A DNA stretch of 14,838 bases. It comes from an uncultured Holophagae bacterium (GTDB taxonomy: Bacteria; Acidobacteriota; Holophagae; Acanthopleuribacterales; Acanthopleuribacteraceae). The stretch covers positions 1-14,838 of the forward strand of contig CAYRFM010000136.1 of NCBI GenBank assembly GCA_964423555.1. The letters are read 5' to 3'. The notes under the pieces were generated by a model that worked only from the letters and a program-made list of their open reading frames with translations, ran no database searches and was not told the origin of the DNA. The first letter of the stretch is position 1, and each line of letters opens with the position of its first letter. Below are positions 1,723 to 14,549 of the stretch, one piece after another. A program made the translations under genes and the position numbers.

Positions 1723-4116
1723 ATGGCGAAGCCGCCCAGTTCCCCCCAGGAAAGCACCGAACCGATCCAACTCAAAGCACCCTGGCGCCTCCCCTGGTGG
1801 AGCCGATTGGACGCCTATCTCTTCGCCGAGATTCACTATCCGTTTTTCCTGGCGATGTTGGTCTACAACGGCATTTTCCTGATCCAGATCCTCAGCGAGG
1901 TCTCGCAGATCGGCAGCGGGCAATTTACGATTCCCTCGCGCCTGTTCCTGCTCGTGTTCCTCAGCCGTATCCCCGATATCCTGCCGCTGACATCCGCGCT
2001 CTCGTTCCTCTCCGGCACCCTCTTCGCGATGCGGCGCATGAGCGGCGACAGCGAGATCATTGCGCCGCAGTCCCTGGGCGTCAGCTTCTGGAGGGTCAAC
2101 CGCGCAATTTTCCTCTACGGCTTTTTGCTGGCGCTGGTCAACAGCTGCGTCATCAACTTCATGGGCCCCTACCTGACCCGCAAGGCCAAGGTCGAGTACC
2201 AGCACTTCATCGAATTCGAGGCCTTCCCCAACATCAATGAAGGCATCAACCAGCTCAGCAACAATGCCGTCATGTACGTCGACCGGGTCGAAGAGGGCAT
2301 GCTGGCCGGGATGATGATCCTCAACCGCAAGGACGCGGAGGAGGAGATCTACCTGGCGCGCAGAGCCTCGCTTTACACCAACCGCGAGGTTCATTTGGTC
2401 GACTGGACCATGTGCACCCTGCCGCGCACGTGGGATTCCACCAATGACATCCGCTTTCTCGACGGCAAGACCCTAGCCCGCCAGATTCCGGTGCCGACCA
2501 ACTTCGGCAAGGAGTATCATCCCGGCGAGCGCAGCGAGTTGGACACCCTGCAAATGTGGTCGGAAATCAAGGCACTGGGCGACAGGGTCCCACCCGAGCG
2601 CCTCTACGCGCTCTACCAGCGCCTGTTTTCGCCGCTGATCTTTCTGATCCTCGCCATGTTCGCCGTACCGCTGGCCGCGCGCCACCACCGCCAGAGCACG
2701 GGCTCGGGCGTCGGTTGGAGCTTGCTCTTTATCCTCATTCACTTCATGCTCACCAAGGTTTCCGGCGATCTGGCCGAGGAGCGGCGTCTCAGCCCCGAAC
2801 AGGGCGTGGCCCTGCCACTCTCGGTCCTGTTCGCCATCGGCTTCGTGCTCCAGGTCGGCAAGAACCTGTGGTGGAGCCAATACATCCGCAAGAACCAGGG
2901 CCGCATCGGCTACGCTCTGGAACGCGCCGCCCGCTTTGTCGGTCGGGGGCTTGCAGGCCTGTGGCGCATGATCACGCCCGCGCGCAATACCGCCAGCCGC
3001 AGCGCCGCGCAGACGTTTGTGTTCCCCAGCAAGCTGGACATGTACACCATCAAGTCGTTCTTTTCGATCCTGATCATGGTTCAGCTCTCATTCCTGTTGT
3101 TGTTCGTTTTGCTGGAGTACGTCCAGCTCAGCGACTCGATTCGCACCAACCACATCAGCGGTGAATTGGTCGTGACCTTCTTCCTCAACAAGCTGCCCAA
3201 CATGGTCGACGAGACTCTGTTCATCAGCCTGTTGATCGCGATTCTGCTGCTGTTCACCTTCATGAGCAAGAACCAGGAGATCGTGGCCATCCGCGCCGGC
3301 GGCGGCAGCATGCAGCGGCTCTGCCTGCCGCTGGTGTTCTGCGGTTTATTGGTCTCAGGCGGCGCCTTCTATCTGGAAAACATGTTCCTGCCCAACACCA
3401 ACCGCACCGCCCAGATCCTGCGCAACAAGATCCGCAACAAATCGGAGACGATGTTCACCCGCGATGTCTGGATGCGCACGAAGGAAGGCGTGATCCTCAA
3501 CTACACCCACTACGACGACCTCAAGAGCCGCCTGGTCGACGTGACCCGTTACCGCATCGAGGGCGATCCAGTGCAGCGGATCGAGCGCACCTCTTGGCCG
3601 ATCCTCGAGGCCCGCGGCGGCCAGCTCTGGAAGGTGGAAGTCCCTACCAAGGCCTGGCGCTTCCACTTCAACGGCCGCCTGGTCGAAAAGGTCGAACGCC
3701 TGGACATACCCAAGGACACCATGGTCGACCTGGGCTTCGACCTCGCCGAACTGCGCCACCACAAGCGCAAGGCAGCGGAGTTCAGCATCCACCAGCTACG
3801 CGACTACCTCAACTACCTCAAGAGCCTTGGCTACGTGGAGGGCCACTACCGCACCGAGCTCTACATCAAGTACGCCAAGCCCCTGATACCGCTGTTCATG
3901 ATGCTGCTGGCCATGCCGCTGGGGATCCAGGTCGGCCGCCGCGGCACCTTCTACGGCGTGGCGATCGGCTTTGGCGCCGGGCTATCGTTCCTCGGTTTCT
4001 TCGAACTTTGCAAGGAACTGGGCTCGTCGGGCACGCTCAACCCACTCGTCGCCGGCTGGTCAGTCGTCGTCGTCTACGGCTTCGTGGCGCTTTACCGCTT
4101 CATCAATCTCGAGTGA
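1723..4116 (+). CDS. lptFG: Fused LptF-LptG-like LPS export permease (two YjgP/YjgQ-family modules in one 797-aa polypeptide)
   Basis: Single uninterrupted ORF. The N-terminal half (aa ~25-400) shows the YjgP/YjgQ pattern: a TM helix, then RMSGDSEIIAPQSLGVSFWRV, a periplasmic beta-rich insert, then TM helices. The second half (aa ~440-797) repeats the pattern: MYTIKSFFSILIMVQLSFLLLFVLLEY...AIRAGGGSMQRL...periplasmic insert...C-terminal TM helices. LptF and LptG are normally separate adjacent genes. Confidence 0.7.
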   Translation: MAKPPSSPQESTEPIQLKAPWRLPWWSRLDAYLFAEIHYPFFLAMLVYNGIFLIQILSEVSQIGSGQFTIPSRLFLLVFLSRIPDILPLTSALSFLSGTLFAMRRMSGDSEIIAPQSLGVSFWRVNRAIFLYGFLLALVNSCVINFMGPYLTRKAKVEYQHFIEFEAFPNINEGINQLSNNAVMYVDRVEEGMLAGMMILNRKDAEEEIYLARRASLYTNREVHLVDWTMCTLPRTWDSTNDIRFLDGKTLARQIPVPTNFGKEYHPGERSELDTLQMWSEIKALGDRVPPERLYALYQRLFSPLIFLILAMFAVPLAARHHRQSTGSGVGWSLLFILIHFMLTKVSGDLAEERRLSPEQGVALPLSVLFAIGFVLQVGKNLWWSQYIRKNQGRIGYALERAARFVGRGLAGLWRMITPARNTASRSAAQTFVFPSKLDMYTIKSFFSILIMVQLSFLLLFVLLEYVQLSDSIRTNHISGELVVTFFLNKLPNMVDETLFISLLIAILLLFTFMSKNQEIVAIRAGGGSMQRLCLPLVFCGLLVSGGAFYLENMFLPNTNRTAQILRNKIRNKSETMFTRDVWMRTKEGVILNYTHYDDLKSRLVDVTRYRIEGDPVQRIERTSWPILEARGGQLWKVEVPTKAWRFHFNGRLVEKVERLDIPKDTMVDLGFDLAELRHHKRKAAEFSIHQLRDYLNYLKSLGYVEGHYRTELYIKYAKPLIPLFMMLLAMPLGIQVGRRGTFYGVAIGFGAGLSFLGFFELCKELGSSGTLNPLVAGWSVVVVYGFVALYRFINLE

Positions 4117-4468: not shown

Positions 4469-4813
4469 GTGCAGCAGGGTGCTGCACAATTACCCTGGTT
4501 CCAGGCCGGCGCCTTCAAGCCGGAGCACCTGGGCCAGCTCGGCTTCTACCTGACCGCCATCGACCGCGACATGAAGAGCGCGCACGACAACCCCACGATT
4601 GGGCTCTTGCTCTGCAAGACCAAGAACAAGGTGGTGGCCGAATACGCCCTGGGCGACAAGACGCAGCCAATGGGCATCGCCGAATATCGCCTGGCGCAAG
4701 CCTTGCCTGCCGAGCTGCAAACCAGCCTGCCCACGATTGAAGAAATCGAGCGGGCCCTCATGACAATATGGTTGAAGTTCGTGGCGCACTACCGCTTCAT
4801 CGACCTGGAATAA
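4469..4813 (+). pseudogene. C-terminal remnant of a YhcG/DUF1016-family PD-(D/E)XK nuclease gene (N-terminal catalytic part missing)
   Basis: FKPEHLGQLGFYLTAIDRDMKSAHDNPTIGLLLCKTKNKVVAEYALGDKTQPMGIAEY matches the conserved C-terminal block of YhcG-like proteins (FKPEY-GQLNFYL...NP-IGIILC...VEYAL). Upstream in frame there is a stop at 4385-4387 and no nuclease core. A perfect 10-bp-stem palindrome TTGTGCAGCA-GGG-TGCTGCACAA at 4467-4489 sits at the truncation point. Confidence 0.55.
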
Positions 4814-4819: not shown

Positions 4820-5773
4820 TCACTTAGCGAAAATATCCTCTGCCCGTCCAGCAACGAGCAAGTTTTTACCCCAACCCAGCACCGTGTCTGTGTCCGCAGC
4901 ATCTACTTTCGCCGCATTCTCAGCGGGCAGGTCACCAAACCGGGATTGATAGAGGGCCACAAACAATTTCTTTGCCCCTTGGCTCTCTCCTGCGCGCTGC
5001 GCTTCGTCCCAAGCCTGAACCCTAGGAGGACCAAATGTCCCAACTTCGAATCGCATGTTCACCTCCTGCTGTTCCCAATTCTGGACCTCAGCCACAGGGA
5101 TGTCAAGTTCTGGCGGCAAGGTCATGACGATATCGATGAAGTTCAATAGTGTCACAATTTCACCGCGATTGCGGCCGACGCGAAAGGCAAGCCGGAAAAG
5201 TTCGCGCTTCCAGCGCGCTCTTTGGTGGGGACTGCGCCGCGTTCTTGCGGAGTGCAGATGAGCAGCGACAACCAAGAGAAACGGGTTACAACCCGAGGCC
5301 AGTTTCTTGAGGTTGGGCTCCAGGTCAATTAACTTGACCACATTGAAGCGGTAATCGAGCGATGTGCCAAAGCAGCTGCGCTGGTAACCTTCCGGGCGCC
5401 AGTCACTCAGGTCCGTGAGAATCGCTAGCTGACAGATACCGTGCTTATCCCCCATTCGGTGGTCCAGCTCGAGGTAATAACCCAGCATGCGCTTGTTGAA
5501 ATGCGGCTGGGGTCGGTCCTGAACCTCGTTGTGAAGCATCACCAGAAAGTCGGAACCATCGAGCAAGTGAAGACGGACCAGTTTATCCAGGAAATGTCGA
5601 CGGCGCTGGCGAAAAGCGCTGGGCTTGGGAAGCTCCGAATCGCAAAACACAGGCGCCGCCTGCCAGTCGACTTTCGCCCACAGGTCCGGCAGAAACAACT
5701 CGAGCATGGGCGAAAGAAAATGCTCGATAACGTACTTCCAGGCGCCATCATAATGGGTCACCAATCTTGCCAT
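4820..5773 (-). CDS. Rpn-family (YhgA-like, DUF4351-containing) PD-(D/E)XK recombination-promoting nuclease or putative transposase
   Basis: Most likely start is the ATG at 5773 (MARLVTHYDGAWK), with AGGAGGG 6 nt upstream. The six-frame ORF extends to 5971, but that extension is AT-rich and not conserved-looking. The N-terminal YDGAWKYVIEHFLSPMLELFLPDL matches the D-D-WK...F-P signature of cyanobacterial-type Rpn proteins. LVMLHNEVQDRPQPHFNKRMLGYYLEL matches the IEVQ...RM-Y core. The C-terminus LFVALYQSRFGDLP...LGWGKNLLVAGRAEDI resembles DUF4351. The gene is ~50% GC against ~66% in flanking genes. Confidence 0.6.
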   Translation of the reverse strand: MARLVTHYDGAWKYVIEHFLSPMLELFLPDLWAKVDWQAAPVFCDSELPKPSAFRQRRRHFLDKLVRLHLLDGSDFLVMLHNEVQDRPQPHFNKRMLGYYLELDHRMGDKHGICQLAILTDLSDWRPEGYQRSCFGTSLDYRFNVVKLIDLEPNLKKLASGCNPFLLVVAAHLHSARTRRSPHQRARWKRELFRLAFRVGRNRGEIVTLLNFIDIVMTLPPELDIPVAEVQNWEQQEVNMRFEVGTFGPPRVQAWDEAQRAGESQGAKKLFVALYQSRFGDLPAENAAKVDAADTDTVLGWGKNLLVAGRAEDIFAK

Positions 5774-5989
5774 AGAGCCCTCCTGGCGGACGGCAGCCGC
5801 CTGAATAGGATGCAGAACTGAGCATGCCAAAATTATCCACGAATACTTTTCATCGTCAACCAGGGAAGGCGCGAGGGAGCTGTCAGCGCCTCCGTCGGGC
5901 CAGGACGTAAGGGTTGTGAAAAAAAGCACGAACTCGGGGAATGTATTTCTCCATAATTTCGCCTTAAGCATCTGAAGGCGAGTCGGTAC

Positions 5990-6056: not shown

Positions 6057-6662
6057 ATGGACGAGCTCATCGATGCCGCGCTTGCGATGACCACGTTGCC
6101 CTTGACGATCCTCATGGGCGTCGTCGCCCTTTATTGGCTCTCGGTGCTCCTGGGAATCTTCGATCTGCACCTGTTCGACGGCGATGTTGACCTCGACCTC
6201 GACAGCACAGGCTTTTTTGGCCACCATTTCGGCTTTGGCGACGCGCCCTTCATGCTGGGCTTCAGTCTGGTCGTCTTCTTCTCCTGGGGCATCGCCGTAC
6301 CGGTCGAACATCTGATCCATCCGCAGGGCGGCATTGCCTGGGCTGGCCTAGCTGGCATTGTCCTGACCGGCTACGTGCTGGCCAAATTCGCGGCCGTTCC
6401 TCTGGGCCGCATCTTCACGCATTTCAACAAGGAGCACGGTGCCGTCGACGCGGTCGAAGGCCAAGTCTGCACCCTGCTCTATGACACCAACAACCAGGTC
6501 ACCTCGCAGGGCCGCATTGTCACCAAGAGCTCGCCCGTCGAGATCAACGTGCGGGCGAGAGCGGGCCAGCAGCTGCCCCAAGGCAGTCGCGTGCTGGTCA
6601 TTGAAAAGGCCGAAACGGGCAACTACTATTACGTGGAAACCATCGAAGAATTGGAGCGTTGA
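6057..6662 (+). CDS. yqiJ: NfeD/YqiJ-like inner-membrane protein (N-terminal TM helices plus a C-terminal OB-fold beta domain), the usual operon partner of SPFH proteins
   Basis: 201 aa. The N-terminal half has 3-4 hydrophobic helices. The C-terminal region (VEGQVCTLLYDTNNQVTSQGRIVTKSSPVEINVRARAGQQLPQGSRVLVIEKAETGNYYYVE) is the soluble beta-rich NfeD-like domain. Its stop is 2 bp before the ATG of the downstream SPFH gene. Confidence 0.7.
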   Translation: MDELIDAALAMTTLPLTILMGVVALYWLSVLLGIFDLHLFDGDVDLDLDSTGFFGHHFGFGDAPFMLGFSLVVFFSWGIAVPVEHLIHPQGGIAWAGLAGIVLTGYVLAKFAAVPLGRIFTHFNKEHGAVDAVEGQVCTLLYDTNNQVTSQGRIVTKSSPVEINVRARAGQQLPQGSRVLVIEKAETGNYYYVETIEELER

Positions 6663-6664
6663 AC

Positions 6665-9106
6665 ATGGGTTTTTTCGAAGCATTTAGCGGTGTTGTCATC
6701 GCCATCGTCGTCCTTGGTCTGCTGGCGATTTTCACCCTGGCCATCAGGCTCTATCGGCGCGTACCCCAGGGCATGGCCCTGATCCGCAACAGTCCCGGCG
6801 GCGCCCACGTCTCCTTTCACGGCGCCCTAGTCCTGCCCTTCATCCACAAGGCCGAGATCATGGACATCACCGTCAAACGCATCGAGATCGCCCGTGCCGG
6901 CTCCGACGGCCTGATCTGTAAGGACAACCTCCGCGCCGACATCAAGGTCGCCTTCTTCGTGCGGGTCAACAAGACCGCCGACGACGTGCGCAGCGTCGCC
7001 GATATCCTCGGCGTCGACCGTGCCTCCGACCAGAACGCCCTGATCGGCCACTTCGACGCCAAGTTCTCCGAGGCCCTCAAGACCGTCGGCAAGCGCTTCA
7101 ACTTCGTCGAGCTCTACGAGGCACGCGACCACTTCAAGCGCGAGGTCACCGGCGTCATCGGCGAGGATCTGGACGGCTATCGCCTGATCGACTGCGCCAT
7201 CGACTACCTGGAGCAGACCGAAATCACCAACCTCAATCCGGACAATATCCTCGACGCCGAGGGCATCAAAAAGATCACCGAGCTGACCTCGACCCAAAAG
7301 ATCCTCGCCAACCAAATCGACCGCGACCGCGAGAAGACGATCAAGCGTCAGAACGTCGAGGCCGAGGAAGCCGTGCTGGAGTTGGACCGCCAACTGACCG
7401 AGAAGCAGGAGCGTCAGAAGCGCGAGGTCGCCGCCGTCAAGGCCCGTGAGGCCGCCGAGGCCCACAAGATCCAGCAGGAAGAGCGCCTCAAGGCCGAGGG
7501 CGCCCGCATCCGCACCGAGGAAGAGCTGTCGGTGGCCGAGCAGAACAAGCAGCGCCAGGTGATTGTCGCCGAGAAGAACAAGCAGCGCACCGAGGCGATC
7601 GAGAACGAGCGCATCATCAAGGACCAGCAGCTCGAACAGACCGAGCGCGAGCGGGTCGTCGATCTGGCCCGCATCGAAAAAGAGCGCGCCATCGAGTCCG
7701 AGCGCAAGAACATCCAGGACGTCATTCGCGAGAGGGTGGCCGTCGAGAAGACCGTCGTCGAGGAAGAAGAGAAGATCAAGGACACACGCGCCGTCGCCGA
7801 AGCCGAGCGCACCAAGAAGGTCACCGTCGTCGCCGCCGAGCGTGACGCGGAAGAGTCCCGCGTCAAGCTCGTCGTCAAGGCCCGTGCGGAAAAAGAGTCC
7901 GCCGAACAGCTGGCCCTCCAGAAAGTGATCGAGGCCGAAGCCGACCAGAAGGCCGCCGACAAGAGCGCCGAGGCCCGCAAGTTGCTGGCCGAGGCCGCCG
8001 CCGCCGAAGCCGCCGCGACGGGCCTGGCCGAGGTCAAGGTCGCCGCCGCCCGCGCCGAGGCCAAGGAACGCGAGGGTAGCGCGCAGGCCTTCGTGATCGA
8101 GAAAGTCGCCCTTGCCCAGGCCCAGGCCGCCGCCGCCAAGGCCGGCGCGCTGCGCACCGAGGGTGCCGCCGAGGCCGAGGTCATCGAGAAGAAAGCGCTC
8201 GCCGCCGCCAAGGCCGAGCAGGCCCAAGGCGCCGCCGAGGCCGAGGTCATCGAGAAGAAGGCGCTCGCCGCCGCCAAGGCCGAGCAGGCCCAAGGCTCCG
8301 CCGAGGCCGAGGTCATCGAGAAGAAAGCGCTCGCCGCCGCCAAGGCCGATGAGGCCCAGGGCAGTGCCGCCGCCGTCGTCATCGAGAAGAAGGCCCAGGC
8401 CGAGGCCAAAGGCATCGAGCTCAAGGCCGGCGCCCGCCGCACCGAAGGCGGTCTCGAGGCCGAAGTCCTCGAACAGAAAGCCCTCGCCCAGGCCCGCGCC
8501 GAGGAAGCCGCCGCCGCCGCCCTCGAGAAGACCGGCAGCGCCGAAGCCAACAACCTGCTCAAGAAGTTCCAAGCCGACGCCCAGGGCATCCGCGACAAGG
8601 CCGAGGCCATGAAGCTGTTCGACCCCTCCGGCCGTGCCCACGAGGAGTTCAAGCTGGTCACCGAACGGGACCGCCAACTGGCCCTGGCCCAGATCGAGAT
8701 GCAGAAGAGCATCGCCGCCGCCCAGGCCGAGGTTCTCTCCGCCGGCCTGCAATCGGCCAAGATCGAGATCATCGGCGGCGAGTCGATGTTCCTCGACAAG
8801 CTGCTCGGCTCCGTCACCCAGGCCAAGTCCGTCGACCACCTCGTCGGTGGCTCGAAGGTCCTCAACGACGTCAAGAACACCTTCTTCAACGGCGACCCCG
8901 CCTACTTCAAAAGCCAGCTCCACACCTTCATCGACCAGTTCGGTCTGGACAGCGAGGACATCAAGAACCTCAGCATCTCGGCCGCGATCCACAAGATGAT
9001 GAATGCCACCGCCGACGACCGCGCCCGCGGCGTGCTCTCCTCGATCCTCGGTTGGGCCGAGAAACTGGGGCTGGACGCCACCAAACTCGACGACTTCCGC
9101 AAGTGA
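6665..9106 (+). CDS. yqiK: SPFH/band-7 flotillin-like protein (YqiK/FloT-like), 814 aa, with an unusually long Ala/Glu-rich coiled coil containing tandem repeats
   Basis: N-terminal TM helix (VVIAIVVLGLLAIFTLAI), then an SPFH domain (ALVLPFIHKAEIMDITVKRIEIARAGSDGLICKDNLRADIKVAFFVRVNK...). A ~450-aa EA-rich helical region follows, then a flotillin C-terminal region. ATG at 6665 has GGAG 9 nt upstream. The six-frame track starts at TTG 6659. Confidence 0.85.
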   Translation: MGFFEAFSGVVIAIVVLGLLAIFTLAIRLYRRVPQGMALIRNSPGGAHVSFHGALVLPFIHKAEIMDITVKRIEIARAGSDGLICKDNLRADIKVAFFVRVNKTADDVRSVADILGVDRASDQNALIGHFDAKFSEALKTVGKRFNFVELYEARDHFKREVTGVIGEDLDGYRLIDCAIDYLEQTEITNLNPDNILDAEGIKKITELTSTQKILANQIDRDREKTIKRQNVEAEEAVLELDRQLTEKQERQKREVAAVKAREAAEAHKIQQEERLKAEGARIRTEEELSVAEQNKQRQVIVAEKNKQRTEAIENERIIKDQQLEQTERERVVDLARIEKERAIESERKNIQDVIRERVAVEKTVVEEEEKIKDTRAVAEAERTKKVTVVAAERDAEESRVKLVVKARAEKESAEQLALQKVIEAEADQKAADKSAEARKLLAEAAAAEAAATGLAEVKVAAARAEAKEREGSAQAFVIEKVALAQAQAAAAKAGALRTEGAAEAEVIEKKALAAAKAEQAQGAAEAEVIEKKALAAAKAEQAQGSAEAEVIEKKALAAAKADEAQGSAAAVVIEKKAQAEAKGIELKAGARRTEGGLEAEVLEQKALAQARAEEAAAAALEKTGSAEANNLLKKFQADAQGIRDKAEAMKLFDPSGRAHEEFKLVTERDRQLALAQIEMQKSIAAAQAEVLSAGLQSAKIEIIGGESMFLDKLLGSVTQAKSVDHLVGGSKVLNDVKNTFFNGDPAYFKSQLHTFIDQFGLDSEDIKNLSISAAIHKMMNATADDRARGVLSSILGWAEKLGLDATKLDDFRK
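8165..8420 (+). repeat. Intragenic 66-bp (22-aa) tandem repeats: three near-identical copies plus degenerate flanking copies
   Basis: GCCGCCGAGGCCGAGGTCATCGAGAAGAAAGCGCTCGCCGCCGCCAAGGCCGAGCAGGCCCAAGGC repeats at 8165-8230, 8231-8296 and 8297-8362 with 2-4 mismatches. It encodes AAEAEVIEKKALAAAKAEQAQG. Degenerate copies extend to ~8530. Confidence 0.85.
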
Positions 9107-9112
9107 CCGCCC

Positions 9113-9139
9113 GCGCGGGTGAGTGCCGCTCACCCGCGC
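9113..9139 (+). promoter_or_regulatory. Perfect GC-rich hairpin between the flotillin gene and the giant ATPase gene (possible terminator, attenuator or processing site)
   Basis: GCGCGGGTGAG-TGCCG-CTCACCCGCGC: an 11-bp perfect stem with a 5-nt loop, starting 7 nt after the flotillin stop. No U-tract follows. The downstream gene has its own GAGGG RBS at 9162-9166. Confidence 0.4.
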
Positions 9140-9173
9140 CGCGTCCCACGATCCTAACTGCGAGGGTGTCAGC

Positions 9174-12100
9174 ATGTCCGATCAGAACCCGGCGCCTGAG
9201 GGCGCCGCAGAAGGAACCCAGGTCCGCCTCGAGAGCGGCACCTACGAAGTCATCCGCGGCCGCCTGCAGGCCCAGGCCAACGAGCTCCAGAGCCGCCTCG
9301 ACGGGCTCAACCTCGTGCGCAAACAGACGTTCGGGGCCATCGAGACCCGCCTCACCGGCACCCAGCGCGTGCTCACCGCCAACAACTGCATCCCCCAGGA
9401 CATGTACGCCATCGGCGACTGCTTCCTGTTCGGCTACAACGTCCACCTGGGCCTGCGCACCGACCTCCAGCTCGAGGACGTCTTCGCCGTCTATGCCTAC
9501 GCCGACGGCCAGTTTCAGGCCCGCGACCTGAGCCTGATCCAGGACCCCGAGTTCGAAAAGGACTTCAAGAACCTCTACAAGTACTACAAGAACACCAGTT
9601 TCATCAAATTCGCCATCATCGGCCCGCACCTCTTCATGCAGTTCCAGATCGGCCGCGCCGTCACCGATTTCAAGACCTTCAAGTGGCTGATCGGCGACAG
9701 CGGCCTGACCTACCTGGACAGCCGCTCCGACCACGAGTTCAAAGTCCCGCCCCAGCACGACTTCGAGTGGTCCCGCGTGCGCCGCGACTGGTTCCGCATG
9801 GGCGCTCACCCCCACGTCTCGATCGAGGACCGCGTCTTCGTCGAAACCATCGGCGGCGACCTGACCATCAAGGTCGAGGACAACACCACCAGCGGCAGCG
9901 GCATCTACGCCGAACCCGTCGACCACCCCGATCAAACCCTCGACGACAGCGAGATCTACTACGCCGCCGTCGGCCACGTCATCCTTCTGAAGATCCTGCC
10001 CTACCAGGAGAAAAAGTACCGCTACTTCGTCTACAACGAGAAGCTTCAGGAGGCGCTGAGAGTCGACCCCATCGGTGAGAGCTGCGTCTTCTTGCCCGAC
10101 GGCCACGGCCTGATCTTCCCCCGCGGCTACTATCTCCAGACCGGCATGCTCAAGCTCTTCGAGGCCCAGGTCGCCGGCCTGGCTTTCGAAAAGCGCCTGA
10201 CCTCGCCCAATGGCGAGGACTTCCTCTACATCTTCTATAACCGCGAGAGCGGCGTCTATGTCCTGCTCAGTTACAACCTGATCCAGCAAAAGGTCGAGAG
10301 CCCGATCGTCTGTAACGGCTACAGCTTCTTCGCCGATGGCACCCTGATCTACTTCCGGGCCGAGGAGCAGCCCGGCAAGCACCATTCGGTCCAAATTTGG
10401 CAAACCCCATACACCCGCGAGGGCTTCGACCTCGGCCAGCAGCATAACTCGCCCATCGCCCGCATCGGCAACAAGGACATCGTCCGCGCCATGGCCGAGT
10501 GCGGCGAGGTCCTGACCCTGGTGCGCAAGGAGGACAGCTACGCCAACCTCTACGTCGACATCGCCCGCAAGTGCACCGACATCGTCGACAGCTACTTCTG
10601 GCTGCGCGAGGAGGCCACCGCCGACCTCCACGCCGCGCTCGGCGCCATCGCCGCCGCCGCCCGCTCCGCCATCGACGAATTTGACAAAGTCAGCCGCATC
10701 AAAAAGACCACCCGCGAGGAGATCGAGCGCGTCGCCGCCGCCGCGGCCGCCCTGTTCAAGCAGATCGCCCGCACGCCCCTGCGCCAGGTCGACGAGTTCG
10801 TCGCCAGCCTGACCAAACTGCGCAGCCTGCGCGGCGAGGCCATCTCCTGCCGCGAGCGCCGCTACGCCGACAGCGCCCGCATCGACGCCCTCGAGACGCA
10901 GATCCGCGAACACGCCGAACAACTCTCCAGCGCCTGCGTCGCCTTCCTGCTCCGCGACGAGGCCCTCGCCCCCTACCAGAGCCGCCAGCTCCGACTCGAG
11001 CAGCAACTGGCCGAGGTCCGCACCGTCGCCGCCGCCCGTGCCCTCGAGCAGGAGCTGGACGGCTCCAGCCGCGAGCTCGAGCTGCTGATCGAGATCGTCT
11101 CCAACCTCAAGATCGACGACGCCACCCAGACGACCCGCATTATCGACGCCGTCAGCGCCATCTTCGCCGAGCTCAACCGCCTCAAGGCCGCCCTCAAGAA
11201 CCGCGTCCTCGAGTTGGCCCGCAGCGAGGGCGTGGCCGAGTTCAACGCCCAGCTCAAACTGCTCGCCCAGTCCGTCACCAACTACCTGGACGTCTGCGAT
11301 AGCCCCGACAAATGCGAGTCCTATCTGACGAAACTGACCGTCCAGGTCGAGGAGCTGGAGGGCCGTTTCAGCGAGTTTGACGAGTTCATCAACCAGCTCG
11401 TCGAGAAGCGCGAAGAGATCTACAACGCCTTTGAAGCCAAGCGCCTGGCTCTGGTCGAGGCGCGCAACAAGAAGGCCGCCGCGCTGTTCTCCGCCGCCGA
11501 GCGCATCCTTGCCGGCATCCGCAACCGCGCCGCCAAGTTCGACCAGGTCGCCGAGATCAACGGCTACTTCGCCGGCGACCTGATGGTCGAAAAACTGCGC
11601 AACCTCATTGATCAGCTCGTCGCCCTGGAGGACACCGTCAAGGCCGACGACCTCCAGGCCCGCCTCAAGACCATCCGCGAAGAAACCGTCCGCCAGCTCA
11701 AAGACCGCCAAGAATTGTTCGACGGCGGCACCAACCTGATCCGCTTCGGCAACCACGCCTTCAGCGTCAATACCCAGGCCCTGGCCCTGACCATGGTCGT
11801 GCGCGATGGCCAGCAGTGCTACCACCTGGCCGGCACCGACTTCTTCGAACCCGTCGCCGACCCCGCCTTCCTCGAGACCCGCGCCGTCTGGGACCAGGAA
11901 CTCGTCAGCGAGACCGCGACCGTCTACCGCGCCGAGTTCCTGGCCTGGCGCCTGCTGCAAACACTCGACCAGGGCGACCCCCACCAGCTGCTCTGTGCGA
12001 GCGCCGAGGAGCTGCCCGAGCGGGTGCGCCTGTTCGCCGGACCCCGCTACGCCGAGGGCTACACCAAGGGCGTCCACGACGGCGATGCCGCCCTGCTGCT

Positions 12101-14549
12101 CGCCAACTTGCTCGAGCTGCGCCGCGGCCTCGGCCTGCTGGCCTGGCCCAGCCGCGCCCGCGCCCTGGCGGCGCTCTATTGGCACCGCTTCTGCCCCGAG
12201 CCCCTGCGACTGCACTGGCGCGCCACCTGCGCCGGCCTAGCCACTTTGTTCGAGTTCTATCCCAGCGCCAGCGCTTCAGCCCGTCATGTCGCCGAGATCG
12301 CCGAGCAGCTGCGCGCCTTCGTCGCCGCCACCGCCCTGTTCGCGCCCGAGCTCGTCGACGACGCCGCCGCCGCACTGTTCAACCAGCTCCAGCAGGGTGA
12401 CGGCTTCGCCATCGCCGTCGAGGCCAGCGAGCTCTACCGCGGCTTCGCCTCGCAGATCGCCCATCGCGGCTTCCAGGAGCGCCTGCAGGCCGCCCTGCGC
12501 GAACTGGAGCGGGAGCCCGCCCGCGCCTTCCAGCTGACCCGCGAGTGGGTCCGCGCTTACCGCGAGCACGAGACCAAGATCGACGCCCAGTTCGAGGACG
12601 AGGCCGCCGTGCTCTACCTCACCGACAGCTGGGCCGCCACCAGAGTCGGCAGCCTGACCTGCGCGCGCCTGCTCGAGGGCTTCAAGGGCAGCCACGCCGT
12701 CCTCGACCAGGGCCGCTACCAGCTCGACTTTTACAGCTTCCGCACACGCTTGGCCACCTACGACCGCGAGCTGGTCCCGCGCTTCGAGCACTACACCGCC
12801 CAAAAGAAGCGCCTGCTCGAGGAAAGCGCCCGCACCATGCGCCTTGACGAGTTCAAGCCCAAGGTCCTGACCAGCTTCGTGCGCAACCAGCTGCTCGACA
12901 AGGTCTACCTGCCCCTGATCGGCGACAACCTGGCCAAGCAGATCGGTGCCGCCGGCGCCGGCACGCGCACTGACCGCATGGGCATGTTGCTGCTGATCTC
13001 ACCGCCCGGCTACGGCAAGACGACCCTGATGGAGTACATCGCCAACCGTCTCGGCCTGATCTTCATGAAGATCAACGGCCCGGCCCTGGGCCACGAGGTC
13101 ACCTCCCTCGACCCCGCCGCCGCGCCCCATGCCGCCGCCCGCGAGGAGCTCCACAAGCTCAGCCTTAGCTTCGAGATGGGCGACAACGTCATGATCTACG
13201 TCGACGACATCCAGCACTGCAACCCCGAGTTCCTGCAAAAGTTCATCTCACTCTGCGACGCCCAGCGCAAGATCGAGGGCGTCTACAAGGGCCGCACCCG
13301 CACCTACGACTTCCGCGGTCGCAAGGTCGCCGTCGTCATGGCCGGCAACCCCTACACCGAGAGCGGTGCCAAGTTCCGCATCCCCGACATGCTCGCCAAC
13401 CGCGCCGACACCTATAACCTGGGCGACATCATCGGCGACAACGCCGAGAGCTTCGAGCTCTCCTACATCGAGAACGCCCTGACCTCGAACCCCGTCCTCA
13501 ACAAGTTGGCCGCGCGCAGCACCAAGGACGTCCTGACCCTGGCCCAGGCGGCCCGCAGCGGTAGCCGCGACGGCCTCGAGCTGGAGGGCAACTACGGCGC
13601 CGAGGAACTGGCCGAGTTCACCGCCGTGCTGCAGAAGCTGTTCCGGGTCCGCGACGTCATTTTGCAGGTCAACCTGGCCTACATCAAGAGCGCCGCCATG
13701 GAGGACGCCTACCGCACCGAACCGGCCTTCAAGCTCCAGGGCAGTTACCGCAACATGAACAAGATCGCCGAGAAGGTGTTGCCGATCATGAACGAGGCCG
13801 AACTCGAAGGCCTGATCCGCACCCACTATGAGAACGAGGCCCAAACGCTGACCAGCGGCGCCGAGGCCAACCTGCTCAAGTTCCGCGAGCTGTGCGGCAC
13901 CCTGAAAGGCGCGGAGGCCGAGCGCTGGCAAGAGATCAAACGCAGCTTCGCCGGGCGCCAGCGCCTGCAGGGCATCGACACCAGCGATAAGCTCGGCCAG
14001 GCCGTGGCCCAGCTGCAGGCCTTCGCCAACGGCCTGGACGCCATCAAAGAGCTGCTGGCCAAGGGCATCGACCAGCAGTACAAGCTGGCCAAATGGGAGG
14101 CCAAGCAAAAGACCGAACCCCGCGACCCGACGGCACCCCAGCACACCCACACGACCCTGGCCCCCGAGACTCTGACCCGCCTGGCCGCGCTGCTGGAACC
14201 GCTCAGCCAGAACCTGGCCCAGGCCCTGGCCCAAGCGACCAAGGCACCGCTGATCGTGCCAGCCGCCGCGCCGGCGCCGGTTCCAGCGCCAGCACCACAG
14301 CAGAGTCAAACCGAAGAAGCGCTAGGCAAATACCTGGCCGCCCGCGACAAGGAGCAGCAGTACCTATTGAAACTGCTGCGCCAGCAATTCGAGGTCATGC
14401 AGCATTGGCTGAAGCCGACCTACGAAACGACCAAGGCCCACGACGCCACCATGGACAGCCTGACCAGTGCCGTCAACAACCTGATGGCGACCCACGGCAG
14501 CCTGCTCAACTACCTCCAACAATTCGAAGGCAAACGCCCCCGCACCTAA
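9174..14549 (+). CDS. Giant (~1,790 aa) multidomain protein: N-terminal beta-rich domain, long helical/coiled-coil middle, C-terminal AAA+ ATPase domain of the AAA_5 (MoxR/CbbQ/dynein-related) type, and a helical tail after a Pro/Ala linker
   Basis: Preferred start is ATG 9174 (MSDQNP), with GAGGG 7 nt upstream. The six-frame ORF starts at GTG 9123, inside the hairpin. Walker A LLLISPPGYGKTTLMEY at ~13000-13030. Walker B NVMIYVDDIQH at ~13190-13215. Sensor-1 VAVVMAGNPYTESG. A MLANRADTYNL motif resembles the ALLDRF motif of AAA_5. The first ~450 aa are aromatic and beta-rich (YAIGDCFLFGYNVHLG, FLYIFYNRESGVYVLLSYNL, SFFADGTLIYF). Residues ~480-1250 are helical, Ala/Leu/Glu/Arg-rich. A PAAAPAPVPAPAPQQ linker precedes the last ~80 aa. 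Confidence 0.8.
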   Translation: MSDQNPAPEGAAEGTQVRLESGTYEVIRGRLQAQANELQSRLDGLNLVRKQTFGAIETRLTGTQRVLTANNCIPQDMYAIGDCFLFGYNVHLGLRTDLQLEDVFAVYAYADGQFQARDLSLIQDPEFEKDFKNLYKYYKNTSFIKFAIIGPHLFMQFQIGRAVTDFKTFKWLIGDSGLTYLDSRSDHEFKVPPQHDFEWSRVRRDWFRMGAHPHVSIEDRVFVETIGGDLTIKVEDNTTSGSGIYAEPVDHPDQTLDDSEIYYAAVGHVILLKILPYQEKKYRYFVYNEKLQEALRVDPIGESCVFLPDGHGLIFPRGYYLQTGMLKLFEAQVAGLAFEKRLTSPNGEDFLYIFYNRESGVYVLLSYNLIQQKVESPIVCNGYSFFADGTLIYFRAEEQPGKHHSVQIWQTPYTREGFDLGQQHNSPIARIGNKDIVRAMAECGEVLTLVRKEDSYANLYVDIARKCTDIVDSYFWLREEATADLHAALGAIAAAARSAIDEFDKVSRIKKTTREEIERVAAAAAALFKQIARTPLRQVDEFVASLTKLRSLRGEAISCRERRYADSARIDALETQIREHAEQLSSACVAFLLRDEALAPYQSRQLRLEQQLAEVRTVAAARALEQELDGSSRELELLIEIVSNLKIDDATQTTRIIDAVSAIFAELNRLKAALKNRVLELARSEGVAEFNAQLKLLAQSVTNYLDVCDSPDKCESYLTKLTVQVEELEGRFSEFDEFINQLVEKREEIYNAFEAKRLALVEARNKKAAALFSAAERILAGIRNRAAKFDQVAEINGYFAGDLMVEKLRNLIDQLVALEDTVKADDLQARLKTIREETVRQLKDRQELFDGGTNLIRFGNHAFSVNTQALALTMVVRDGQQCYHLAGTDFFEPVADPAFLETRAVWDQELVSETATVYRAEFLAWRLLQTLDQGDPHQLLCASAEELPERVRLFAGPRYAEGYTKGVHDGDAALLLANLLELRRGLGLLAWPSRARALAALYWHRFCPEPLRLHWRATCAGLATLFEFYPSASASARHVAEIAEQLRAFVAATALFAPELVDDAAAALFNQLQQGDGFAIAVEASELYRGFASQIAHRGFQERLQAALRELEREPARAFQLTREWVRAYREHETKIDAQFEDEAAVLYLTDSWAATRVGSLTCARLLEGFKGSHAVLDQGRYQLDFYSFRTRLATYDRELVPRFEHYTAQKKRLLEESARTMRLDEFKPKVLTSFVRNQLLDKVYLPLIGDNLAKQIGAAGAGTRTDRMGMLLLISPPGYGKTTLMEYIANRLGLIFMKINGPALGHEVTSLDPAAAPHAAAREELHKLSLSFEMGDNVMIYVDDIQHCNPEFLQKFISLCDAQRKIEGVYKGRTRTYDFRGRKVAVVMAGNPYTESGAKFRIPDMLANRADTYNLGDIIGDNAESFELSYIENALTSNPVLNKLAARSTKDVLTLAQAARSGSRDGLELEGNYGAEELAEFTAVLQKLFRVRDVILQVNLAYIKSAAMEDAYRTEPAFKLQGSYRNMNKIAEKVLPIMNEAELEGLIRTHYENEAQTLTSGAEANLLKFRELCGTLKGAEAERWQEIKRSFAGRQRLQGIDTSDKLGQAVAQLQAFANGLDAIKELLAKGIDQQYKLAKWEAKQKTEPRDPTAPQHTHTTLAPETLTRLAALLEPLSQNLAQALAQATKAPLIVPAAAPAPVPAPAPQQSQTEEALGKYLAARDKEQQYLLKLLRQQFEVMQHWLKPTYETTKAHDATMDSLTSAVNNLMATHGSLLNYLQQFEGKRPRT

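Follow-up and report, generated by a model that had tools for sequence, protein, structure and literature searches.

An abbreviated NfeD-flotillin-giant AAA+ operon in an uncultured Holophagae bacterium: a predicted membrane-stress module

Introduction

Why should the gene pair for a flotillin and its NfeD-type partner be followed, on the same strand, by the gene of a giant AAA+ ATPase? The question is raised by a 14,838-nt contig of an uncultured Holophagae bacterium (Acidobacteriota; GenBank assembly GCA_964423555.1, contig CAYRFM010000136.1), which was analyzed at its full length and is called the window here. Three consecutive open reading frames (ORFs) at 6057–14549 of its forward strand, together called the triad, encode a YqiJ/NfeD-type small membrane protein (gene 1), an extended YqiK/FloT-type flotillin (gene 2), and a giant AAA+ protein (gene 3; Table 1). 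SPFH assemblies pair with AAA+ machines, HflK/C-FtsH being one example, and polymers of the ESCRT-III/PspA family are remodeled by AAA+ ATPases such as Vps4.

An earlier note, made from the letters of this DNA alone, had proposed that the three genes form a membrane-associated module, that the coupling of an SPFH/NfeD pair to a giant AAA_5 protein was uncharacterized, and that an ATP-driven machine recruited to flotillin assemblies might serve membrane stress or remodeling, or else defense. The analysis reported here followed these proposals across related genomes, family profiles, structure models, and the literature. It points to a conserved module that corresponds to a published operon, with a likely role in membrane stress or maintenance.

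Results

A scan covering a single genome for each GTDB species served to collect homologues of gene 3 and gave at least 600 pattern matches, of which 568 were confirmed and 80 loci kept; synteny was counted over the 64 of these 80 loci that had at least 3.2 kb of upstream sequence. A flotillin gene lay directly upstream of the giant gene, on the same strand, in 61/64 loci, with NfeD, flotillin, and giant genes ordered on one strand in 57 and flotillin and giant genes without NfeD in four. The adjacency of the giant gene to SPFH and NfeD genes that the earlier note had drawn from a single contig is therefore consistent, and an incidental neighborhood is refuted. Syntenic loci came from Planctomycetota, Bacteroidota, Verrucomicrobiota, Desulfobacterota, Clostridia, Kiritimatiellota, and Omnitrophota, and the two closest Acidobacteriota relatives had the same triad, which stood alone amid unrelated genes (for example, GGDEF, phosphatases, and glycosyltransferases), as in the window. 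The flotillin was ~55% identical across phyla, and the pairwise distances of giant and flotillin proteins were correlated (mirror-tree r = 0.79); given that this is a raw value with no control gene pair, it counts just as weak support for a shared history. On this gene order, the three genes, which stay side by side in at least six phyla, are predicted to constitute a functional module.

In about 18 Bacteroidota loci, the triad belonged to a longer series of genes, in the order of a divergent helix-turn-helix (HTH) and peptidase-S24 regulator, a CesT_Tir_1/YbjN-like gene, PspA/IM30, and then NfeD, flotillin, and giant genes. Downstream of the triad, four Bacteroidota loci carried DUF4178, one unassigned protein, DUF350, and then a transmembrane (TM)-fused spermine synthase. 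The giant protein of the window is an orthologue of those in the PspA-linked Bacteroidota loci (L009, L019, L033, and others), with which it shared ~47–55% identity over ~1,600 aa or more. Upstream of the window triad, the place of the CesT/Tir-PspA dyad was taken by an Rpn-like ORF, a YhcG fragment, and LptF/G. A protein of ~155–171 aa assigned to PF06892 (phage regulatory protein CII/CP76) recurred upstream of the triad in the Kiritimatiellota/Verrucomicrobiota loci L016, L041, L049, and L066; its gene was located within a few kb upstream of NfeD, and was directly adjacent in L041 and L049. This protein may be a lineage-specific regulator and the counterpart of the Bacteroidota HTH-S24 gene.

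The coupling of SPFH/NfeD to a giant AAA_5 protein, which the earlier note had considered uncharacterized, turned out to have been described, by comparative genomics alone. An operon composed of CesT/Tir-PspA, YqiJ/YuaF (3TM), band-7/flotillin, and a beta-propeller/coiled-coil/AAA+ protein was reported by Ravi et al. (2024, mSystems, PMC11237479, section 19), with the matching gene string of ANH61663.1 from Dokdonia donghaensis as an example in their Table S3. According to the same study, the abbreviated form of the operon, reduced to these three genes, has the wider distribution and may act with PspA encoded elsewhere (PMC11237479). All three proteins, their order, and their domain architectures match the window triad, and our Bacteroidota loci, with ~50–55% identity to the window in the giant and flotillin proteins, reproduce the long form. 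However, the window triad differs from the long form in having no adjacent PspA, CesT/Tir, or HTH-S24 gene, and its flotillin is longer (813 aa) and has a recent 22-aa repeat expansion. Judged by sequence, the window triad is thus best described as the abbreviated three-gene form of this operon. An association of PspA with band-7/FloT-NfeD has also been reported in Acidobacteriota (Popp et al., 2022; PMC9239133).

The window sequences of genes 1 and 2 had no match in Pfam (E up to 10), NCBIfam, or PADLOC, and phmmer searches against PDB sequences returned nothing useful for either. Given that the window copies were unmatched in Pfam and NCBIfam, the identity of both genes rests on the comparison of family profiles, for which orthologues were taken from the 80 related loci and aligned (38 sequences for gene 1 and 37 for gene 2). 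The gene 1 profile aligned with E. coli YqiJ over nearly its full length (hhalign; 96.6% probability, E 5e-10, 176 columns), and PF21001 YqiJ_N was matched by 21/38 orthologues and PF01957 NfeD by 5/38, the Pfam NfeD model leaving the window copy itself undetected. By hydropathy, gene 1 encodes a 3-TM protein with three hydrophobic segments, to which are added an acidic loop and, at the C-terminus, a beta (OB-like) domain; the best PDB match of the profile, the YuaF C-terminal domain, was weak (E 0.54), so that the OB-domain part is weakly supported. The gene 2 profile aligned with E. coli YqiK over 383 columns (100% probability, E 9.7e-41, 33% identity), its coiled coil aligned to that of the SPFH protein QmcA (8z5g) in the comparison with the PDB, and Pfam Band_7 was matched by 5/37 orthologues (best E 3e-13). 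Its order of parts comprises an N-terminal membrane anchor, which is the single hydrophobic segment (aa 1–33), an SPFH domain, a long Ala/Glu-rich coiled coil, with 0 Pro and 67% A/E/K/R/Q in residues 201–640, and a conserved C-terminal domain. These comparisons support the assignment of gene 1 as YqiJ/NfeD-like and of gene 2 as a YqiK-type flotillin, both of which the earlier note had proposed.

Also upheld was the unusual length of the flotillin, 813 aa in the window vs 553 aa in E. coli YqiK and a family median of ~696 aa. Part of the extra length is due to a tandem repeat in the coiled coil, whose 66-nt period encodes the 22-aa unit AEAEVIEKKALAAAKAEQAQG-, and this repeat is a lineage-specific, recent length expansion. 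Both E. coli YqiJ-YqiK and B. subtilis YuaF(NfeD2)-FloT share with the window the succession of NfeD and flotillin genes in tight coupling (here, 2 nt from the gene 1 stop to the gene 2 ATG), and YqiK and FloT have the membrane anchor, the SPFH domain, and the EA-rich coiled coil in common with gene 2. In contrast, the window flotillin is ~260 aa longer than YqiK and escapes detection by Pfam Band_7, and E. coli yqiK is followed by sib/ibs toxin-antitoxin loci, whereas the window flotillin is followed by the AAA+ gene.

More than 4,600 homologues of gene 3 were found; those among the matches listed measured ~1,600–1,950 aa, with 88–100% coverage and ~50–60% identity, and came from Acidobacteriota, Planctomycetota, Bacteroidota, Verrucomicrobiota, Desulfobacterota, and Sumerlaeota. 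The closest among the matches listed were Acidobacteriota, with 57–61% identity. The giant protein was a single ORF in 76/80 genome loci, and homologues of similar length occurred in thousands of assemblies, complete genomes included, which rules out that 9174–14549 consists of several genes joined by sequencing error; the earlier note had read it as one gene. A library clustered at 50% identity held 728 representatives of DUF3686, the N-terminal domain of gene 3. Among the best 150 of these 728, DUF3686 was N-terminal in every seemingly complete protein (roughly 1,300–2,000 aa), and most of the shorter proteins resembled fragments; DUF3686 therefore defines this one family. A 1,711-aa homologue, 55% identical, was also present in a eukaryotic protein set (EukProt, P0074), possibly through contamination or horizontal transfer.

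Pfam assigned three parts of gene 3: DUF3686 (PF12458, aa 37–475, E 1e-184), DUF7902 (PF25472, aa 596–678, E 1e-25), and an AAA core (aa 1272–1395), with AAA_5 barely above its cut-off. The protein had no hydrophobic segment and is predicted to be soluble; by the hydropathy of the three proteins, membrane anchors are limited to genes 1 and 2. An AlphaFold2 (AF2) model of aa 1–480 (predicted local distance difference test, pLDDT, 85.9; predicted template modeling score, pTM, 0.84) gave an N-terminal helix, ~27 beta strands across aa 59–410, and then further helices. In a Foldseek search of this model, with the PDB as the fold library, the top matches listed were nearly all beta-propellers (WD40, Kelch, prolyl-oligopeptidase propeller, CyRPA), at E ~1e-7 but with TM-scores of just 0.2–0.37. 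We read the modeled domain as propeller-type blades, with a tentative blade count and ring closure. The reading agrees with the "beta-propeller repeats" that Ravi et al. (2024; PMC11237479) gave for the AAA+ protein.

The earlier note had ascribed ~750 aa of coiled coil to the giant protein, which is an overestimate, since in the model aa 851–1235 fold into a small beta unit and a globular bundle of helices with a linker after it. The composition of aa 476–850 (3 Pro in 375 aa, 66% E/K/R/Q/A/L/D) is consistent with a coiled-coil-like stalk, as is a weak PADLOC match to LmuB through an SMC-like coiled coil, whereas a second AF2 model (aa 850–1650, pLDDT 85.5) resolved ~12 helices of the globular bundle at aa ~920–1150 and included the complete AAA+ module. 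This module is intact, with all nucleotide-binding motifs present, and its alpha/beta domain is the best-conserved part of gene 3 (84% mean identity); the AAA+ identity that the earlier note had given to the protein is borne out by Pfam AAA/AAA_5 and the nucleotide-binding motifs. Walker B has the form hhhhDD, with an Asp-Asp that was invariant among 44 homologues, vs the usual Asp-Glu. The closest folds were the MoxR-class ATPases NorQ and CbbQ, and sequence searches reached only the P-loop of p97/Cdc48 and RuvB. The closest known AAA+ kinds are the MoxR class (NorQ, CbbQ; Pfam AAA_5/AAA_3) and the AAA_5 modules of dynein and midasin, and MoxR/AAA_5-like is the best label for the module, its clade assignment being tentative. 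The C-terminal tail was conserved at 16–29%, and its family consensus carries a conserved L..QF.LM..W..P motif.

Between the flotillin stop and the giant gene lie 67 nt, a GAGGG 7 nt 5' of the gene 3 ATG at 9174, and a GC-rich hairpin (Table 1); the hairpin, pointed out in the earlier note, is genuine. The predicted fold of the 81 nt at 9100–9180 had a free energy of -35.3 kcal/mol (z -2.4). The hairpin was not called in a terminator scan, and a canonical intrinsic terminator is ruled out by the missing U-tract; the element is a candidate partial terminator or mRNA-stabilizing element. Of the 49 related loci whose gap measured 40 nt or more, 22 had a stable hairpin of at least 7 bp after the flotillin stop (a raw count with no background control), which suggests that this element probably lowers expression of the motor below that of the scaffold. 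A U-tail was present on 6 of these 22 hairpins, as in the Kiritimatiellota locus L016.

The same junction varied among the related loci. Small unrelated genes were inserted between flotillin and giant genes in L017 (8715–9380) and, as homologues, in L028 and L030, gaps reached up to 2.4 kb in L014, L033, and L064, and genes for an AbiEii toxin and for DUF559 endonuclease-like proteins were among the inserts. Insertions are therefore tolerated at the flotillin-giant junction, and translational coupling is not required. Neither flotillin nor NfeD was found upstream of the giant gene at 3/64 loci, and two further loci with short flanks also had other genes there. The neighbors of the giant gene at these flotillin-less loci (L025, L029, L031, L005, and L021) comprised TonB_C, Uma2, DUF2147, DUF389, and TPR genes, and a small gene was located upstream of it at 818–1255 of L021.

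The remainder of the window holds genes of other kinds. The 797-aa ORF at 1723–4116 appears to be a fused LptF-LptG. The 383-aa Rpn-family ORF was ~30% identical to cyanobacterial plasmid genes and lies in a stretch with a GC content of 0.55 vs ~0.63; together with the YhcG fragment, this low-GC islet looks like a mobile-element remnant rather than a defense system. Beyond the triad, a 76-nt repeat begins 21 nt past the giant gene stop and reaches the contig end, every unit containing the palindrome GCGCAAATTCCAAATTTGCGC. The repeat was considered as an array of clustered regularly interspaced short palindromic repeats and rejected, because the whole unit is conserved, which leaves no spacers. 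It is probably the cause of the assembly break at the contig end. Rfam gave no RNA family in the window, the 76-nt repeat included.

Table 1. Coordinates of the features in the 14,838-nt window, with residue numbers for parts of the giant protein.
Feature	Position (nt)	Strand	Residues (aa)	Remarks
DCC1-like gene	306-1613
LptF/LptG permease	1723-4116	+		single 797-aa ORF, two LptF/LptG domains (two Pfam stretches)
YhcG-type PD-(D/E)XK nuclease, C-terminal fragment only	4469-4813	+		Pfam
Rpn-family/DUF4351 PD-(D/E)XK putative transposase	4820-5971	-		383 aa; missed by Pfam
Gene 1, YqiJ/NfeD-type small membrane protein	6057-6662	+		201 aa
Gene 2, alternative start	6659	+		TTG
Gene 2, extended YqiK/FloT-type flotillin	6665-9106	+		813 aa from ATG
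Tandem repeat within flotillin coiled coil	8165-8391	+		66-nt period, 3.4 copies, 91% matches, score 370 (Tandem Repeats Finder)
GC-rich hairpin	9113-9139	+		perfect 12-bp stem, 3-nt loop, 7 nt past flotillin stop, no U-tract
Gene 3, giant AAA+ protein	9174-14549	+		1,791 aa from ATG; open frame from 9123
Gene 3, N-terminal helix			21-53
Gene 3, beta-propeller-like domain, DUF3686 core	9339-10418	+	56-415
Gene 3, helical coiled-coil-like stalk	10599-11723	+	476-850	includes DUF7902 (aa 596-678); from composition
Gene 3, small beta unit, globular alpha-helical bundle, and linker helix	11724-12878	+	851-1235
Gene 3, AAA+ module	12879-13973	+	1236-1600	includes lid and C-terminal helices
Gene 3, Walker A	13008-13022	+	1279-1283	GYGKT
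Gene 3, Walker B	13191-13208	+	1340-1345	MIYVDD
Gene 3, other AAA+ features			N1392, R1410, R1526	sensor-1 N1392; beta-hairpin ahead of sensor-1 strand
Gene 3, C-terminal tail	13974-14546	+		helix, Pro/Ala-rich low-complexity linker, short conserved terminal helical segment
Tandem repeat at contig end	14570-14838			76-nt unit, 3.5 copies, 89% matches

Discussion

What the triad does can be approached through the partners that its genes keep. We favor, with confidence that is evenly balanced, a membrane-stress or membrane-maintenance machine in which a flotillin/NfeD scaffold works with an AAA+ motor that remodels sub-membrane complexes, probably with PspA. The flotillin, aided by its NfeD partner, would assemble into a large oligomeric scaffold at the cytoplasmic side of the membrane, and the giant protein would oligomerize via its MoxR-like AAA+ ring. 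Its propeller head, carried on the coiled-coil stalk, would then bind the flotillin assembly, PspA/ESCRT-III-like polymers, or clients located there, a putative contact, and the energy of ATP would serve to assemble, remodel, or disassemble these complexes beneath the membrane when the envelope is under stress or the membrane is being maintained. This explanation is supported by the conserved synteny, by the gene identities, by the intact AAA+ module with its MoxR-class folds, by the membrane anchors of genes 1 and 2 beside a soluble gene 3 product, by the PspA/CesT and polyamine genes linked in Bacteroidota, and, weakly, by the correlated protein distances; HflK/C-FtsH and Vps4 offer precedents. 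The ATP-driven machine that the earlier note had imagined at flotillin assemblies, in membrane stress or remodeling, matches the published prediction, in which comparative genomics placed the operon in a PspA membrane-stress network and an analogy to ESCRT was drawn (PMC11237479).

Several observations weigh against this explanation. A PspA/CesT gene was found neither in the window nor beside the triad in the two Acidobacteriota relatives, and given that no pspA adjoins the triad here or there, the PspA link is indirect for the window triad. The giant gene stands apart from any flotillin at L025, L029, and L031, and probably at L005 and L021. Literature searches found no experimental work on any member of the triad. 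Finally, given the invariant Asp-Asp of Walker B in place of Asp-Glu, the predicted ATP hydrolysis may be slow or regulatory. A more specific form of the membrane-machine explanation, to which we give some credence though distinctly less, accommodates this last feature: the giant DUF3686 protein might be the dedicated assembly and disassembly motor of flotillin cages and of the PspA/ESCRT-III polymers recruited to them, so that SPFH scaffolds in bacteria would have their own equivalent of Vps4 or NSF, with a propeller head that would sense what state the scaffold is in and an Asp-Asp Walker B that would make it a slow, switch-like motor. Like HflK/C-FtsH and like ESCRT-III/PspA with Vps4, the triad would pair an oligomeric scaffold or polymer at the membrane with an AAA+ ring acting within or on it. 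However, the giant protein has no protease or MIT domain and no sequence kinship to these systems beyond the AAA+ core, and the comparison is drawn as analogy, not homology.

SPFH cages enclose AAA+ proteases, and the relation of scaffold and motor could also run in the opposite direction. Instead of being the substrate, the flotillin/NfeD cage might corral or regulate the motor and position it, as in HflK/C-FtsH, while the motor acts on other membrane-proximal clients through protein extraction, complex maturation, or cofactor insertion. That the closest folds, NorQ and CbbQ, are maturation or activase chaperones for specific client complexes, and that beta-propeller heads are typical of client- or adaptor-binding modules, fits such a cage. 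However, no conserved candidate client gene was linked in the 80 loci beyond PspA/CesT in Bacteroidota, and a VWA-domain gene, the typical partner in MoxR systems, was found neither in the window nor among the recurrent neighbor clusters of these loci. We consider a regulatory cage unlikely rather than implausible, and sequence data alone do not appear to separate it from the favored membrane-stress machine.

Defense systems often contain large ATPases whose sensors are repeat domains. The triad might be an anti-phage or abortive-infection system in which the flotillin would provide a platform in the membrane and the giant ATPase would be its sensor or effector; the earlier note had listed a defense effector among the possible roles and had found the context compatible with a defense island. 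A few observations lean this way, namely, the AbiEii and DUF559 genes between flotillin and giant genes in a few loci, Uma2 upstream at a flotillin-less locus, the Rpn-type putative transposase upstream in the window, and weak PADLOC matches of gene 3 to LmuB and IetA. These matches (7.6e-5 and 4e-3 in PADLOC-DB 2.0) reflect coiled-coil or P-loop likeness with no match at the level of a system, and the Pfam scan gave no effector domain (nuclease, TIR, or pore-former). Given that a family with ~50% identity over 1,800 aa across phyla, and with a DUF3686 confined to this architecture among the representatives listed, is conserved in a way unlike fast-diversifying defense genes, a defense function is disfavored, and we regard it as improbable. 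The defense-island setting is rejected: there is no meaningful PADLOC match, the genes that flank the triad vary among relatives and have for the most part metabolic or housekeeping roles, and the low-GC islet consists of the Rpn-type putative transposase and the YhcG fragment. Further still from the evidence is a DNA repair or chromosome-associated ATPase whose flotillin link would reflect membrane tethering of DNA transactions. It draws on the database names "ATPase involved in DNA repair" and "DNA repair ATPase", on weak RuvB_N and RuvB matches, and on an SMC-like coiled coil, but these matches cover ~50 residues round the P-loop and fall below their cut-offs (23.9 bits vs 27; 24 bits vs 282), gene 3 has no detected DNA-binding or nuclease domain, and the conserved partners are membrane proteins and PspA. 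Literature searches gave no paper backing the name, which is without support here, and we hold this function to be very improbable. That the adjacency is incidental, or that the giant ORF is an assembly artifact, is hardly credible; nothing other than the hairpin and the gap between genes 2 and 3 favors it, and it is already refuted by the synteny and by the similar-length homologues described above.

Comparative genomics had already predicted such a triad in print, and the window, though a clean example, brings nothing new in kind. Our analysis adds quantified synteny, domain boundaries based on confident models, the MoxR-like fold assignment, and the invariant Asp-Asp Walker B, as well as the confinement of DUF3686 to one architecture (among the representatives listed) and the frequency of the hairpin between scaffold and motor genes. 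Standard hidden Markov model libraries overlook this clade's flotillin and NfeD genes, and routine annotation would miss two of the three genes. The homologues of the third, with ~50% identity across phyla, are all misnamed "DNA repair ATPase". Culturable carriers include Hymenobacter, Pontibacter, Leeuwenhoekiella, Aquimarina, Gimesia, Symmachiella, and Sulfidibacter.

How bacterial flotillin/SPFH scaffolds and PspA polymers are assembled, remodeled, and removed is poorly understood. The operon provides a genetic link from flotillin/SPFH and PspA to an AAA+ protein that is among the largest and best conserved of the uncharacterized ones in bacteria, and if the giant protein is indeed a dedicated motor of these scaffolds, its action would explain the turnover of flotillin assemblies in bacteria.

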